A DNA stretch of 64,000 nt from Pirellulales bacterium. GTDB taxonomy: Bacteria; Planctomycetota; Planctomycetia; Pirellulales; PALSA-1355. The notes below the pieces were generated by a model. The model was not told the DNA's origin. It did no database searches and saw nothing but the letters and a program-made list of their open reading frames with translations. The translations under genes and the position numbers were made by a program. Shown here piece by piece: positions 27,138-33,202 of this stretch (position 1 is its first letter; each line of letters starts with the position of its first letter). The stretch lies in NCBI GenBank assembly GCA_963733035.1, contig CAVTBU010000007.1, positions 416,001 through 480,000 on the forward strand, in the 5' to 3' direction.

Positions 27138-29234
27138 ATGGCGCAGATCCAGGTCCAGGATATTCGCAACATTGTTTTTGGCGGCCACGGATCGGCCGGA
27201 AAGACTTCGCTGGCGGACGCCATCTTGACTAAAACCGGCGCCGTCACGCGGCCGGCCAGCGTCGACGACGGCACGAGCATCTGCGACTTCGACGAGGAGG
27301 AAAAGCATCATCACCATTCGATCGAATCGTCGCTCGTGCACTTCGAGCATGCCGGCAAGCACTTCAACCTGATCGACACGCCGGGCTACCCGGACCTGAT
27401 CGGCCAGGTGCTCGGCGCGCTGCACGCCGTCGAAACCGCGGCGATCGTGGTCGATGCCCATTCCGGGTTGGGCGTAAACACGCGACGCGTCTTTAGGGAG
27501 GCCGGCCAGCGGGGCCTCGGGCGAATTGTCGTCATCAACAAGATGGATACCGAGAATGTCGACTACCCTGCCCTGCTCGGCTCCATCCAGGAATTGTTCG
27601 GGAGCGCCTGCATCCCGCTCAATGTTCCAATCGGTCACGGCCACGACTTCAAGGGCGTCGTCAGCACGCTCAAACCCGACAGCGCCGACGGCGCGCTCGT
27701 CGACCCGGCCTCGATTCGAGAGTCGTTGATTGAGGCGATCATCGAGGTTGACGAGGCAGTGACCGAACGCTACTTCGAGGGCAATCTCCCGACCGACGAG
27801 GAAATCTCGCGGTTGATCGTCGATGCCGTGGCCCAGGGAACGCTGATTCCGGTGCTGAGCGTTTCGGCAAAGACCGGCGCTGGCCTGCCCGAACTGCTCG
27901 ACGCGCTTGCCCTGTGTGCGCTGCCACCTGACAAGATCGAGCGCACGGCGAAAAACGAAGGCGGCGAGGAGGTGGTGCTCAAGGCCGACCCGGCGGGCCC
28001 CTTGGTCGCCCAAGTGTTCAAGACGCGCATCGACCCGTTTGTGCACAAATTGAGTTTCATTCGCGTCTTTTCCGGTACCCTGAACAAGGACGACAGCGTG
28101 CACGTGTCCGGCGCAAAGAAGGGGGTTAAGCTGCATCAGTTCCTTTCGGTGCAAGGGGGGGAAACGCATCCGATCGAACATGCCATTGCAGGCGAAATCG
28201 TGGCCGTCGCAAAGGTCGACGAATTGCACACCAGCTACTCGCTGGGTGAATTGGAACTACCCAAAATCAAATTCCCCACGCCAATGGTTGGGCTGGCCGT
28301 CTCGCCCAAGAGTCGCGGCGACGAAGGCAAGCTCTCAGGCGCGTTGCAAAAGATCGTCGAGGAAGACAGCACCGTTGCCTTGCATCGCGACGCGCAAACG
28401 CACGAGCTGGTGATGAACGGCATGAGCGAGCTGCACCTGCAAATGATTCAGGAGCGACTCAAGCGGCGCGACAAGGTGGAAGTGGATACCAAGGAGCCCA
28501 AGATTCCCTACCGCGAAACCGTGCAAGCCAACGCCGAGGGAAGCTACCGCCACAAGAAACAGAGCGGCGGCCGCGGCCAGTTTGGCGAGGTGCACATCCG
28601 TGTCTTCCCCTTCCCCACCGGGACCGACCCGGCGGAGTTCTGCACCAAGGAACGTTTTCCCAGCATGCGCGAGTTCCACTACGACCCCGATCATCATTTC
28701 CTCTGGGTCGATTCAATCGTCGGCGGTTCGATTCCCAACAACTTTCTGCCCGCCGTCGAGAAAGGCTTCAAGGAGCGGCTCGCACGCGGTGTCATCGCCG
28801 GCTACCAGGTGGAAAACGTCGGCGTCGAAGTCTTCTTCGGCAAACACCATCCGGTCGATAGCTCGGAAGCCGCCTTCAAGACGGCCGGCTCGATGGCCTT
28901 TCGCAACGTCTTCCAGGAAGCCAGGCCAGGGCTGCTCGAACCGGTGGTCGTGCTGCACGTCACTGTGCCCGGAAGCAAGCTGGGCGACATCAACAGCGAC
29001 ATGTCCGGACGCCGCGGCCGCGTGCTGGGCATGGATTCGGCCGGTGGCGACCTGCAAACCGTGACGGCCGAAGTGCCGCTAGCCGAGGTGACCACCTACG
29101 CCCGGAGCCTGTCGAGCATCACCGGCGGTCAGGGGAGCTACACGATGGAATTCGCCCGCTACGATCTAGTGCCCGGCAACGTGCAGAAAGAGATCGTCGA
29201 CAAGGCCGTGCTCAAGGAGGAGGAAGAAGAGTGA
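27138..29234 (+). CDS. fusA: Elongation factor G-like protein (EF-G II type)
   Basis: GHGSAGKT, DTPGY, NKMD, PYRET, KKQSGGRGQFG, HPVDSSEAAF. Confidence 0.9.
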   Translation: MAQIQVQDIRNIVFGGHGSAGKTSLADAILTKTGAVTRPASVDDGTSICDFDEEEKHHHHSIESSLVHFEHAGKHFNLIDTPGYPDLIGQVLGALHAVETAAIVVDAHSGLGVNTRRVFREAGQRGLGRIVVINKMDTENVDYPALLGSIQELFGSACIPLNVPIGHGHDFKGVVSTLKPDSADGALVDPASIRESLIEAIIEVDEAVTERYFEGNLPTDEEISRLIVDAVAQGTLIPVLSVSAKTGAGLPELLDALALCALPPDKIERTAKNEGGEEVVLKADPAGPLVAQVFKTRIDPFVHKLSFIRVFSGTLNKDDSVHVSGAKKGVKLHQFLSVQGGETHPIEHAIAGEIVAVAKVDELHTSYSLGELELPKIKFPTPMVGLAVSPKSRGDEGKLSGALQKIVEEDSTVALHRDAQTHELVMNGMSELHLQMIQERLKRRDKVEVDTKEPKIPYRETVQANAEGSYRHKKQSGGRGQFGEVHIRVFPFPTGTDPAEFCTKERFPSMREFHYDPDHHFLWVDSIVGGSIPNNFLPAVEKGFKERLARGVIAGYQVENVGVEVFFGKHHPVDSSEAAFKTAGSMAFRNVFQEARPGLLEPVVVLHVTVPGSKLGDINSDMSGRRGRVLGMDSAGGDLQTVTAEVPLAEVTTYARSLSSITGGQGSYTMEFARYDLVPGNVQKEIVDKAVLKEEEEE

Positions 29235-29435
29235 GTGGCGACCGGTACCAAATCGCCTAAACTCCGTGGGCCGAGCGGTCCGAAGACTAGACCAGGAAGC
29301 TTGATTTTGCGGCCTGTGACGCCTACGATTGTCGGCGAAACGGCTGTTTTGCTAGCACGCCCTACTTTTCACTCGGAAATTCGGCCTGAAGTCCTCACGA
29401 TCTCGGGGCGAGTCGACCTGCGGAGTGCATCAACC

Positions 29436-29492
29436 ATGACGACGACCAAAGATCAACTGGCTCGGGGTTGTCGCTGCTCCTGTACGATGTAG
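29436..29492 (+). CDS. Cys-rich leader peptide MTTTKDQLARGCRCSCTM, candidate cysE attenuator uORF
   Basis: GGAG at 29422-29425; three Cys codons within five codons; lies directly upstream of cysE. Confidence 0.65.
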   Translation: MTTTKDQLARGCRCSCTM

Positions 29493-29589
29493 CCGTTAGC
29501 GGCTACCTTCTTCGCTCTCCGTTTCTCCGTATTTCGCCCGCCCCGCGGGCCCCTTTTCCGCGCACCGGTGATGTGGTGCAGGAGCACGA
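29471..29589 (+). promoter_or_regulatory. Anti-SD/SD duplex and alternative hairpins of the cysE leader
   Basis: 29471-29490 pairs with 29571-29589, covering AGGAG; hairpin GTAGCCG/CGGCTAC at 29489-29506; alternative hairpin GCACC/GGTGC at 29562-29579. Confidence 0.65.
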
Positions 29590-29594
29590 ACACC

Positions 29595-30554
29595 ATGGCC
29601 TCGGACTTACGCCGCAAAGAACAACTGCCCGAACTGACCAAGCTGATCGTCGATACCTATTCCGAGCTTCCCTCGATCAGCCACCTGGGACATTGTCCGC
29701 TGCCCAACTACAAGATGGTGGTCAGCGCCGTCGAGGACATCAAGGAGATCCTCTACCCGGGCTATCGCCGCCGCGAAGGGCTGCACATCGGCAACGTGAC
29801 CTACCACGTGGGCGACCTGATCGACGGCTTGCACGATAAACTGACCACGCAAATCGCTCGCGCCATGCGGCACGACGCCGGCTACTCGCACGATTGCGAC
29901 ACGGAGGACCACGACTTCGAGGCCCTCGGCCAGGCCAAGGCGATCTTGTTCCTCGAAGCGCTGCCTGAGCTGCGCAAGATGCTGGCGCTCGACGTGCAAG
30001 CGGCACACGACGGCGATCCGGCCGTCAAGACGCTCGACGAGATCATCTTCTGCTATCCCGGTCTCGAGGCGGTAACGATTTACCGCGTGGCTCACTTGCT
30101 GCATCAGTTCGAAGTGCCGCTGATTCCGCGAATGATGACCGAATGGGCCCATTCGAAAACCGGCATCGACATTCACCCGGGCGCCAAAATCGGCAAGCAC
30201 TTCTTCATCGATCACGGCACGGGCGTCGTGATTGGCGAAACCTGCGAGATCGGCGACCACGTCAAGCTGTACCAAGGCGTGACGCTCGGTGCCCTGTCGT
30301 TTGCCACCGACGGCGACGGCAACCTGTTGCGCGGCCACAAGCGGCACCCGACGATCGAGGACCACGTCGTCATCTACGCCAACGCCACCGTGCTGGGCGG
30401 CGCGACGGTCATTGGGCACCACTCCGTGATCGGTTCCAGCGTCTGGCTCACCCGAAGTCTCCAGCCGCATACGACCGTGGTGCTGGAAAAGCCGAAATTG
30501 AAAATGCGGGCCGACATCCAAGAGATGCATCCCGAGGCGAATTTTCAGATTTAA
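29595..30554 (+). CDS. cysE: Serine O-acetyltransferase (CysE/EpsC type)
   Basis: [62 protein letters not shown]. Confidence 0.93.
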
Positions 30555-33202
30555 GCGATTGCCGGGGCCTTCGCGGCTGAGTTGCCGCGTTTGCGCCGAC
30601 TGAGCCAGCCGACCAACGCGACACTCAGCAAGACGCATGCGCTCGCGCCGCTGATCAGGGCGCCATAAAGAATGCTCCTCGGCCGATAACGATAGACGAG
30701 CCGATGTTTACCGGCGGGCAGTACCACGCCACGCATCACGCGGTTGGTCCGCAAGATCGGAACGGTCCGCCGCTCTCCGTCGGTCTCCACGAAGGCTTCC
30801 CAACCCGGATAGTGCTGGTCGGAAAGAACAACGAGCCCCGGAGCAGTCAGCCGCGCATCGATCTCCACGCGCGACGGTTCGGCCGCCACGATTCGGCAGG
30901 ATTCCGAGCGGGTCGTGCCTTCCGCCACCGGAGAAACCGAGAGCGTTGAACGCGTCTCGACGACCGCTGTCGCTCGCCAATCGCGTGGTTGGCCGTCGGG
31001 AAAGGCAATCTCAGAAGTAAACTTCTCGATCCTGCGCGGCGAATTGCTTTCCAGCGGCGGCAACACTTTCACATCGTGGACGATCCACGTCCGTGGGAGG
31101 GCCGTCGGCCGCTCACCCAGCAACATGTCTTCCGCGATTTCGATCGGCCGACTTATCTCTTCGCTTGAGGTCATCGAGACAAGCGCCGACCGGGCGCCCA
31201 CCAGGTCGAGCAACGCCGGGTCGGGAAGGCCCCCCCTCCCCGACCGCCGATTGTGTGTCTGCGCCACTTTGAGAAGGATCGCATAGTCGCTGCCGGCGAC
31301 GGTCTGCAGCACCTCGGCCAGCGGCACCTCTAGCGGCAGCGGAAATCGGGGCCATAGCGTGTCGCGATACCAGCGTAGGCCCTCTTGATAGCGGTCGGGC
31401 GATGCGGTCGTTTCAAACGACGGGGGTGTCGGCGTCAGTTGACGGAATAGGCGGTAGTTCGACGTGTCCTTGGGCAAACGACTCAGAACCCGCGGTCGAA
31501 AACGCCACAGGTCCGCAGGCGCGTAGACGACAAGATCCTTTTGTGCCGCTCCAAGATCGATGGCCACCACCGCGGTCATGGCAACTTGCATCAATCGTCG
31601 ATAGGATGTGCGTCGGCCGAGCCATAGGATGGCCAACACGACGAGGGAAACCATCGAAGCATGCAGCAGAGCGTCGGCAAAGTCCGTTAAAGCGCCCTTG
31701 CCGTCGAGCGGACCCAGCCAGGGGGCCGCGGTCGCACTGGCGAGCGATGACTGAATTTGTGGCCAGTCATAGAGCGTGCCGGCGCCTGCCGCCGCGCCCA
31801 CAAGTGGAATCAGCATCAGCCAGTTCAGCAGCCGGCGGCTGCCTGATTCCCAAACGTCGCGCCAGCCGTAAGCTGCCAGCATGCTCAACCCCAGGCTTGC
31901 GAACACGAATAGCTTGGACGGATAGCGGAACTGAATGTATCCGGGCAGGAAGGTCGCCAGACACCAATACAGTCCCCCGACCTCGCCACCAACGCCAAAA
32001 TCCTCGGAGCTACCTACGGGTAGACCAACCGCCCAGGCAATGCCGTACCAGCCGAAGCTCCCGAGCACGCCGAATAGCGTCATCCACGAAAGAGCGCGCA
32101 CTACCACGTTGGCACGACGACGCAGGCTCCAGATTGTGCACGCCAACACGAATGGCAATAGGCCCATGTACAGCGACGGCATCCAGAAGTTCGACTCGGC
32201 ATCGAAGGCCGATAACCAACGCCTGTGCGTCGGACCGGGACGCCCCGTGATGTTGGGCCAAATCAATTCGACCGCCCGCCACGGTTCGACACTGAAGTAA
32301 TAGACTTTGGCATGATGGCCGCGTGGCGAACCGCCGAGCAAGCCCTTCAATGAAATACCTTCCGTGTCATCGGTACTTTGGGTCCAAGCTTGTGCGAATT
32401 CATAGACGCTTCGCGGCTCGTCGTATCGGGCCCTCGCGCTGTAGGGCGACGCCTCGAACGTAGGCAGCGCTTGAATTGCCGCGAGGGCACCGGCCAGGCC
32501 CATCCCGGCCACCAACAGCAACGGCCTCGATTTGCGCCAACCGGCGCGGAGTGTGGGGCCCGCTGCTGACACCGCTCGCTTGTCATGGCGCCACAGCAGC
32601 AGCGTATAACCGGCTGCGAGCAATGCCGTGTTGTAGGCCATTTGCGGGTCGCCTCCCAACACCATCAGCGCCAGCGTCATGCCAAAGCCCACGGTCGCGG
32701 TCGAACGCCGTTCGCGCAGCATCCGATCGGCATACAACAGGGCCAGCGGCAGCCATGCCGCGCCGACCAAAAAGATCACGTTGCAGTACTGGAACAGCAC
32801 GCTGCCCGAGAACGCATACGAGAGAGCCGCCACACTGGCCCCCAGCACACCGGCGCGTAGATGCCGGGCCAGCGCATAACTGGTACCGGCCGCCAGCACC
32901 ACGTGCAGCACGATGTACAAGTTGTACAGCCAGGTGTAATCCGCCGGCAGCGCGAACAGCAGCTTGCCGGGATAGAACACGCTGGAGGTGTTCTCGGCGA
33001 CCAGCGGCACGCCCAGGTTTTCATAGGGATCCCACAGCGGCAGACGCCCGGCGCCCCACTCCTGGCGAATGTACTGAAACAAGGGGTGATAGAAGTGTGC
33101 CGCGTCGCGAAAGGCGAAACTCGAACCACCCCCCAGGGCCGGCGCGAACAGCCAGACGACGAGCACGCTGGTTAGCAGCAGGATGGTCAATCGGGGTTTC
33201 AA
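30551..33202 (-). CDS. YfhO-like membrane protein (GT-C fold)
   Basis: [21 protein letters not shown], many TM helices, [12 protein letters not shown]..., [22 protein letters not shown]. Confidence 0.85.

Follow-up and report, generated by a model that had tools for sequence, protein, structure and literature searches.

In a Pirellulales bacterium (NCBI GenBank assembly GCA_963733035.1), the leader of cysE, the gene for serine O-acetyltransferase, carries a conserved short open reading frame (ORF) with a cluster of Cys codons near its end, and we consider that this element is probably a ribosome-mediated, cysteine-sensing leader-peptide attenuator of cysE. The proposal draws on comparison of sequences and on RNA folding. 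The window analysed is a stretch of 64,000 nucleotides (nt; contig CAVTBU010000007.1, positions 416,001 to 480,000, forward strand), and coordinates given below are those of the window. An earlier interpretation made from the letters alone (the sequence-only reading) had pointed to an 18-codon, Cys-rich upstream ORF (uORF) with its own GGAG before cysE, and all of the elements it listed were confirmed in the sequence, with small corrections. Judged by comparison with relatives, the uORF is a conserved element and not a chance ORF; its translation, the stalling of ribosomes on it and a cysteine response of expression are what we infer from these data.

The uORF of the window encodes the peptide MTTTKDQLARGCRCSCTM and ends 102 nt before cysE. 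Its Cys codons are codons 12 (29469-71, TGT), 14 (29475-77, TGC) and 16 (29481-83, TGT), in the order C-R-C-S-C with none of them consecutive, so that three Cys fall within five codons, compared with a Cys share of 0.96% over the genome's long ORFs. No Rfam family matched the window's leader at the gathering score, an E-value limit of up to 10 gave only three chance-level matches, and 14 related loci gave no match. The uORF also lies within an 85-codon GTG frame (29235-29492), which we do not regard as a gene since it spans the promoter and a non-conserved stretch. The uORF and cysE lie in the same frame (29436-29597), the uORF TAG being the only stop between them, and the open frame would amount to 353 amino acids compared with 319 for the gene; this arrangement is absent in relatives and is therefore probably due to chance.

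Conservation of the uORF carries most of the argument. Orthologs of cysE were found in 39 of 41 genomes (40 relatives and the window's own), and 30 loci were examined, one of them with upstream DNA too short to judge. At 27 of the 29 assessable loci from the 40 related genomes a Cys-rich short ORF was present, with its end 100-180 nt before cysE; the doubtful loci are L022 and L027. A family-level set added nine loci, all with a Cys-rich frame and eight with a clear start codon, none being obvious in L153. Among 80 public loci, whose titles include Pirellulales, Thermoguttaceae, Lacipirellulaceae, Bythopirellula, Blastopirellula, Bremerella and Rhodopirellula, among others, upstream ORFs with at least three Cys in the last 10 codons numbered 33 on the forward strand and 2 on the reverse strand; with at least two Cys the numbers were 48 and 7. 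Blastopirellula, Bremerella, Rhodopirellula and Bythopirellula appear in genome titles of loci that carry the uORF. The final set comprised 78 non-identical uORF-positive leaders, in which the Cys count of the last 12 codons ranges from 2 to 8, the length and the remainder of the peptide vary freely, and runs of CC or CCC are present in many of the distant relatives. The sequence-only reading had set conservation of the uORF and its Cys codons in relatives as a test of its proposal, and both proved to be conserved across Pirellulales and in two of eight genomes of the sister order.

The pattern of change within the uORF is that of a coding sequence. The window's clade consists of 20 leaders ending in ...R-C-S-C-T-x-stop, in which conservation extends over the entire uORF and is absent from the ~100 nt that separate it from the promoter. 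These leaders share the frame, start and stop of the uORF, and its Ala, Arg, Gly, Cys and Thr codons show synonymous changes. Across the uORF tails TGT makes up 171 of 260 Cys codons, and 69 of 78 leaders use it for their last Cys, compared with 25% TGT in the long ORFs of the genome. We count the kept frame, start and stop, the synonymous changes and the TGT bias as signs that the uORF is translated.

Sampling of the whole phylum outlined the range of the element. From 201 genomes, including the window's own, 57 gave a cysE ortholog at an E-value of up to 1e-60 and 20 upstream regions were fetched. The single other Pirellulales locus in this sample carries MCPALHRFCCRCCC; a clear Cys uORF followed by a CCGGC/GCCGG hairpin was seen at two of eight sister-order loci, and none of 11 loci from other classes had a convincing Cys uORF. 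The two sister-order leaders (L126 and L127, of lower GC) have uORFs ending in ...NCCICL-stop and ...RGCCS-stop 70-90 nt before cysE, with a CCGGC-GNRAG-GCCGG hairpin immediately after the stop and then a U-rich tail, which is the same architecture. About 30 loci lack a Cys uORF, and many of them carry a conserved -10 element 7 nt before the cysE ATG. This suggests that a clade of Pirellulales without the Cys uORF makes a leaderless cysE mRNA under a different mode of control. The motif, CTACGAT or CTACCAT, lies ~7 nt before the ATG in L062-L067, L069, L070, L072, L073, L076, L079 and L082, and at 28 nt in L090.

The element also appears to be specific for cysE. At least three Cys in the last eight codons were found in 168 of 47,559 short ATG frames of the genome (0.35%), and a broader Cys-cluster rule left 19 candidates outside long ORFs, the window uORF included. 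The downstream gene is known for 13 of these 19 (the uORF and 12 that were scanned against Pfam), and only the uORF precedes a sulfur or cysteine gene. The window's own motif occurs as a single copy in its genome, and the upstream region of cysK in the same genome has a promoter-like site and no Cys uORF. When 121 genomes of the order were scanned with a pattern that joins Cys codons to a stop hairpin, ~150 short palindromic matches were obtained, against ~55 for a reversed control. Among the 30 loci listed, 23 matches had a real in-frame stop, and for all 10 in-frame-stop matches with a Cys-rich tail and a gene within ~150 nt that gene was cysE. In the searches made, the regulon of the Cys leader is cysE only. 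That the uORF arose by chance in GC-rich intergenic DNA and regulates nothing would be compatible with the ordinary overall folding energy of the leader and with the poor conservation of the uORF's own Shine-Dalgarno sequence (SD; G[GA]GTGC-like in relatives, at variable spacing). This explanation is already contradicted by the comparative data, namely the order-wide conservation of in-frame Cys codons, the strand bias of 33 to 2 in 80 loci and the exclusive linkage to cysE, and we regard its probability as negligible.

How the uORF might control cysE is suggested by the predicted fold of the window's leader, in which the Cys-Ser-Cys-Thr codons at the end of the uORF pair with the SD of cysE. 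The SD strand is GTGCAGGAGCA, and the 3' end of the 16S rRNA in this genome has the canonical CCUCC anti-SD. The sequence-only reading had described this pairing as extending over ~18 base pairs (bp); it is indeed present, and consists of 11 contiguous pairs (29475-29485 with 29576-29586) plus flanking ones. By RNAduplex the helix has an energy of -29.7 kcal/mol (z = -4.1), a value reached by none of 100 dinucleotide shuffles, and ranks first among 38 sliding windows of the leader. In the free RNA the probability that the SD is paired to the uORF tail is 1.00, and AGGAG is predicted to be unpaired with a probability of 0.00. The competing GCACC/GGTGC hairpin of the sequence-only reading was likewise found, with 6 bp instead of 5; this hairpin, P3, abuts the SD and forms only when the anti-SD helix is open. 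We imitated a stalled ribosome by keeping 28 nt free of pairs, as a footprint whose A site was set at Cys12, Cys14, Cys16 or the stop codon. P3 appeared in all four masked folds, the predicted probability of being unpaired rose from 0.00 to 0.28-0.33 for AGGAG and from 0.13 to 0.41-0.56 for the cysE AUG, and the minimum free energy went from -67.1 to between -42.9 and -47.5 kcal/mol. The switch in which Cys codons and P3 compete for control of the SD was thus reproduced by folding. All structures given here are thermodynamic predictions, and the transcription start is predicted from a conserved motif.

From these elements the following sequence of events can be proposed. Transcription from a promoter near 29301-29329 would yield an mRNA leader with the 18-codon ORF and its three Cys codons near the end. 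As long as the RNA is free of ribosomes, 29475-85 would pair with 29576-86, closing a domain of ~110 nt and leaving cysE untranslated. With ample Cys-tRNA, ribosomes would cross the uORF fast, terminate at the TAG, which lies in a hairpin termed P1, and leave, upon which the helix would re-form. With scarce Cys-tRNA, ribosomes would dwell on the Cys codons with their footprint over the anti-SD strand, so that P3 could form, the SD would be freed and cysE would be translated. The untranslated, C-rich leader RNA may also permit Rho termination, which would reinforce the off state.

The SD pairing is best supported among close relatives. Its 8-bp core joins CAGGAGCA to UGCUCCUG and is paired in 16-19 of the 19 leaders of the clade, and pairing of the SD to the uORF tail at a probability above 0.5 was predicted for 11 of the 19, compared with 4 of 43 leaders elsewhere. 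Masking raised SD accessibility by at least 0.2 in 8 of 19 clade leaders and in 1 of 43 others; the outside set leaves aside 14 leaders without an SD-like motif by regular expression, and L004, L022 and L027 were not run. Over 70 leaders, duplex significance reached p <=0.05 in 12 and p <=0.01 in 5. A P3-like hairpin abutting the SD occurs in 12 of 19 clade leaders against a share of 0.35 in shuffles, and outside the clade such hairpins show no enrichment over shuffles (13 of 42, compared with 0.30). The closing pair of P3 is G-U, G-C and A-U in L001, L152 and L008, the three closest leaders. Ser codons placed between two Cys codons are TCC or TCT in 24 of 24 cases, compared with 19% of Ser codons in the genome, and this bias fits selection for a CUCC anti-SD within the Cys cluster; the 24 codons come from the window's clade together with L017, L026, L046, L104 and L107, which are related and so represent fewer independent events. 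Taken together, the folding results make it well supported that direct sequestration of the SD by Cys codons belongs to the window and its close kin and is not the common denominator of the family. A role of the freed 3' arm of P1 as an anti-anti-SD was considered and rejected, as masking gave no SD opening outside the window's clade.

The hairpin over the uORF stop is far more widely kept. A 7-bp hairpin on the stop codon followed by a C/U-rich tract had been noted from the letters, and both are present, as P1 with the loop TTAG and as a tract from 29507. The P1 core GTAGCC/GGCTAC is invariant in 20 of 20 clade leaders, even though its 3' arm is non-coding and its flanks vary. Across 70 leaders, a hairpin with at least 6 contiguous bp stands at the stop in 55, built from 39 distinct 5' arms; the share with at least three G-C pairs is 0.77, against 0.26 in shuffles, and the 43-nt window around the stop folds at a mean of -14.9 kcal/mol compared with -10.6 kcal/mol for shuffles. 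A GUCCGG/CCGGAC core whose loop holds the stop codon is shared by 37 leaders; its stem, which encodes Cys-Pro-Ala/Val, is nearly invariant. RNAalifold on the clade alignment missed P1 owing to misalignment of the loop, and anchored alignments recovered it.

Several observations weigh against an attenuator that works by sequestering the SD. The covarying anti-SD/SD pairs that the sequence-only reading had proposed to look for did not appear: none of the pairs covary in the 19 clade leaders, all being invariant, and invariant pairs neither support nor refute the helix. The complementarity is also partly forced, as any CUCC will pair with any SD. Outside the clade the pairing is largely missing, as the 4 of 43 leaders indicate, and the family-wide mean duplex z is only -0.33, with cognate pairs at -14.3 and non-cognate pairs at -13.5 kcal/mol. 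Within the clade, 8 of 19 leaders lack the pairing, including L009 (Val, GUG, between the last two Cys) and L013 (Ile, AUC), and a further clade leader, L147, has no SD-like motif at all. In the masked folds the window's SD is still ~70% paired, to two 4-nt CUCC motifs of the pyrimidine tract. The whole 221-nt leader folds no better than expected (z = -0.17; 81 of 200 shuffles equalled or bettered it), so the evidence concerns specific helices and not a globally stable RNA. The SD model does not require P1 or the pyrimidine tract, which of all non-coding features are the best conserved. It also should be considered that the relatives share ancestry, whereby the counts overstate independence, and that the uORF stop positions in relatives were set by eye from script outputs.

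Another reading is that the set of features seen order-wide, namely the Cys codon cluster, a hairpin of invariant sequence on the uORF stop or immediately behind it (GUCCGG/CCGGAC or GUAGCC/GGCUAC) and the pyrimidine-rich, A/G-poor tract, represents a distinct type of attenuator that needs neither an intrinsic terminator nor direct anti-SD pairing. We hold this only tentatively, as a possibility that falls well short of being likely. It may be a stop-hairpin-gated, Rho-dependent or ribosome-release-sensing switch, and the SD pairing of the window's clade may be a later add-on.

The composition of the tract bears directly on a role for Rho. The window's spacer, taken from 21 nt after the stop to position -26, is 75% C+T and 3% A, with an excess of C over G of +0.24, and none of 27 other 5' regions of the genome, which are 52% pyrimidine, reaches this value. 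In uORF-positive leaders the spacers (n=71) are 63% pyrimidine with C minus G of +0.11, and the first 40 nt after P1 are 68% pyrimidine with +0.15, compared with 52% and +0.01 in uORF-negative cysE leaders (n=37). With the same sensor, stalling on Cys codons, the main output could then be Rho-dependent termination before or within cysE, with the tract as rut site and P1 as a pause or gating hairpin, and with the position or release of the leader ribosome deciding whether Rho ends transcription. We judge this unlikely, while taking it seriously. The pyrimidine content and the excess of C over G do exceed those of uORF-negative leaders and of the 27 control regions, P1 and the tract are kept across the order even where anti-SD pairing is missing, the genome encodes rho (656 bits, above the cut-off; C6:364121-365368), and Rho has been proposed for actinobacterial Cys leaders that lack a terminator, according to the available part of Seliverstov et al. 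2005 (PMC1262725). The footprint of a ribosome halted at the Cys codons would, however, judged by its size, stop ~12-20 nt short of the tract, so that the covering known from tnaC would not take place; for the same reason the variant of the sequence-only reading in which the stalled ribosome masks a rut site is unlikely as it was worded. Nor did we find a competing helix in which the tract would be buried once the ribosome stalls; composition by itself is no proof of a rut site, and a weak anti-SD or a place for ribosome standby would fit the tract just as well. An untranslated cysE that lets Rho act from the tract may be one coherent combination of this output with the SD-sequestering attenuator that we favour. 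A second Rho-like gene lies outside the window (G000:C8:67039-68124; 482.7 bits, below the family cut-off). Hungry-codon frameshifting or stop read-through over the spacer was considered and set aside, as no frame-specific signal was present and all frames were much alike; the share of 78 leaders in which a frame is open over at least 75% of the spacer was 73% for -1, 71% for +1 and 58% for 0, compared with 47-49% in mononucleotide shuffles.

A classical trp-type transcription attenuator would make P1 the 1:2 pause hairpin and would make a second hairpin, P2, with its following U run (29536-29559) a terminator that stalling prevents by way of an antiterminator. The position of the stop codon within P1 is as in classical leaders, and P2 has a 6-bp all-GC stem followed by CCCUUUUCC. 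Terminator-like sites are also more frequent in 78 leaders than in shuffles: 19 by strict criteria (0.12 of shuffles) and 43 by loose ones (0.31 of shuffles), with a clear run of 8 U in L083. The window itself fails the strict criteria, and no intrinsic terminator was found on the + strand of its leader by the standard scan or by a separate leader scan. A GCCC/GGGC hairpin like P2 recurs in several close relatives; the U run is not kept, and L150 has an A run in its place. In the window no complement to the 3' arm of P1, as an antiterminator would need, was seen in a search that was not exhaustive over all leaders. Intrinsic termination is hence unlikely in the window and may occur in some relatives, and a trp-type mechanism is in our estimation very unlikely.

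The predicted start of transcription is at ~29336, from a promoter-like element whose -10 ends 106 nt before the uORF ATG. A regular expression for this motif (TTGA..N16-18..TA..AT) has one match upstream of the uORF in 58 of 79 uORF-positive leaders, and an extended form, CTTGATTTTGC-N-GACGCCTA(C/G)GAT, is nearly invariant in the window's clade. A standard sigma-70 scan missed the motif, which has 8 of 12 consensus matches. The motif may be a Pirellulales promoter consensus.

Sensing could in principle reside in the peptide instead of in the codons. A nascent arrest peptide with a C-x-C-T or C-P-x ending might respond to free cysteine, O-acetylserine or metal, or a peptide might act in trans. 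Some selection on amino acids is indicated by the Thr after the last Cys, kept with ACG, ACC and ACA codons, and by the recurrence of the C-x-C-T ending in several clades. Such a sensor sits poorly with the free variation in number of Cys (2 to 8), in length and in the rest of the peptide, with the C-P-A/V ending, which is explained by the RNA hairpin GUCCGG/CCGGAC, and with the fixed position in cis before one gene, and we give it very little credence.

The closest known parallel to the proposed cysteine-codon attenuator is mycobacterial. In Mycobacterium smegmatis Ms5788A, poly-Cys codons pair with a downstream SD, and compensatory mutants show cysteine-responsive translation, according to the available part of the account (Canestrari et al. 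2020, 10.1101/834739, cited in PMC13236596 as Mol Microbiol 114:93); what is available of PMC13236596 regards the mycobacterial Cys loci as translation attenuators. In the same partial view of these sources, Ms5788A and the 'Cys ribulon' share with the present element a Cys-rich short ORF before cysteine-pathway genes, Cys codons that pair with the SD of the next gene and translational control in which a stalled ribosome frees the SD and no terminator is needed, as is proposed here. The mycobacterial short ORFs, as described in the portions at hand, are leaderless and have consecutive Cys codons, whereas the uORF lies ~100 nt after its predicted promoter, has a GGAG and alternates its Cys codons. 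The target here is moreover a monocistronic cysE in a different phylum. The hairpin on the stop codon and the pyrimidine tract are not named in the part of the mycobacterial account available (10.1101/834739). The mycobacterial case, as given there, is proven by mutants, whereas the Pirellulales case is predicted from sequence and folding. The window element, with an action predicted to be like the mycobacterial one, is by sequence outside the leaderless short-ORF family, because its uORF is predicted to be preceded by a 5' leader and has other codons between its Cys codons.

Other systems share parts of the design. The actinobacterial cys and cbs leaders resemble the element in their Cys codons near the stop and the lack of a conserved terminator, Rho having been suggested there; they belong to another phylum and to the cys operon and cbs, and no stop hairpin or SD pairing is described in the available part of that source (Seliverstov et al. 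2005, PMC1262725). In the ermCL and cat leaders, as in our proposal, a stalled ribosome in a short leader ORF remodels hairpins that sequester an SD, the cause of stalling being an antibiotic and the nascent peptide there and probably a shortage of charged tRNA-Cys here (compare the discussion in 10.1101/834739). Like trpL, hisL and leuL, the window's leader has regulatory codons near the end of the leader ORF and a stop codon within a hairpin; it differs in having no conserved intrinsic terminator, and no candidate antiterminator was seen in the window. With tnaC-type leaders it shares a C-rich, G-poor tract after the stop of the leader ORF and the presence of Rho. The tna ribosome comes to a halt on the stop codon and shields the rut site. 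In the present leader, by contrast, stalling would take place before the tract is reached, and the control would be induced by starvation. The literature searched held the actinobacterial work and no paper that connects a cysteine leader peptide with Planctomycetes or Pirellula, and a term search of the available part of PMC2965389 gave no mention of cysE or Planctomycetes, in agreement with the statement of the sequence-only reading that it knew of no description in Planctomycetota.

Very little is known of gene regulation in Planctomycetota. If the proposal is correct, a sensor of amino-acid supply based on RNA and the ribosome would be conserved across the order Pirellulales, with traces in a sister order, and its target would be the committed step of cysteine synthesis. 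Viewed alongside the mycobacterial case, this suggests a repeated origin of Cys-codon leaders in distant phyla. The element would also be a compact one in which to study the coupling of translation, mRNA structure and possibly Rho in these bacteria.

Features of the cysE leader and gene in the window, with their coordinates and the basis of each assignment
Feature	Position	Strand	Basis or detail
Promoter-like element: -35 TTGATT (29301-06), 17-nt spacer, -10 TACGAT (29324-29)	29301..29329	+	conserved motif
GGAG, possible SD of the uORF, 10 nt before its ATG	29422..29425	+	sequence
uORF, 18 codons + TAG, peptide MTTTKDQLARGCRCSCTM	29436..29492	+	ATG 29436, TAG 29490-29492
P0, predicted hairpin within the uORF (29440-47 with 29466-73)	29440..29473	+	minimum-free-energy fold only
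Anti-SD strand TGC TCC TGT AC (Cys-Ser-Cys-Thr codons)	29475..29485	+	minimum-free-energy fold
P1, 7-bp hairpin, uORF stop in 5' arm	29489..29506	+	GTAGCCG 29489-95 / CGGCTAC 29500-06, loop TTAG
Pyrimidine-rich, A/G-poor tract, two CUCC motifs (29517-20, 29525-28) pairing weakly with the SD	29507..29535	+	composition; masked folds
P2, GC hairpin GCCCGC/GCGGGC (29536-41 with 29545-50), then CCCTTTTCC	29536..29559	+	fold; fails standard terminator criteria
P3, 6-bp hairpin GCACCG (29562-67) / TGGTGC (29574-79), abuts SD	29562..29579	+	folding
SD strand GTGCAGGAGCA; SD core AGGAG (29580-84)	29576..29586	+	duplex and folding
cysE, serine O-acetyltransferase, 319 amino acids	29595..30554	+	profile matches, ortholog alignment

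The identity of the regulated gene as cysE, given by the sequence-only reading, stands, and the start it had placed at 29596 was off by one base; most full-length ortholog alignments (those listed from residue 1) begin at the ATG at 29595. The product matches NCBIfam NF041874 (EpsC-type serine acetyltransferase) at 151.9 bits, with a cut-off of 150, and TIGR01172 at 162.9 bits, under that model's cut-off of 210.65; Pfam Hexapep repeats are present. It is the sole serine acetyltransferase gene of the genome, in which no further match was found, and is monocistronic, as the next gene, a YfhO-like one, is convergent. That gene occupies 30551-33202 on the minus strand, and the 3' ends of the two genes overlap by 4 nt (30551-30554). 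On the other side, the leader is preceded by a gene of the EF-G family (27138-29234; NCBIfam NF009381, 765.8 bits), and traces of an EF-G C-terminus in an alternate frame upstream of cysE in several relatives suggest conserved synteny.

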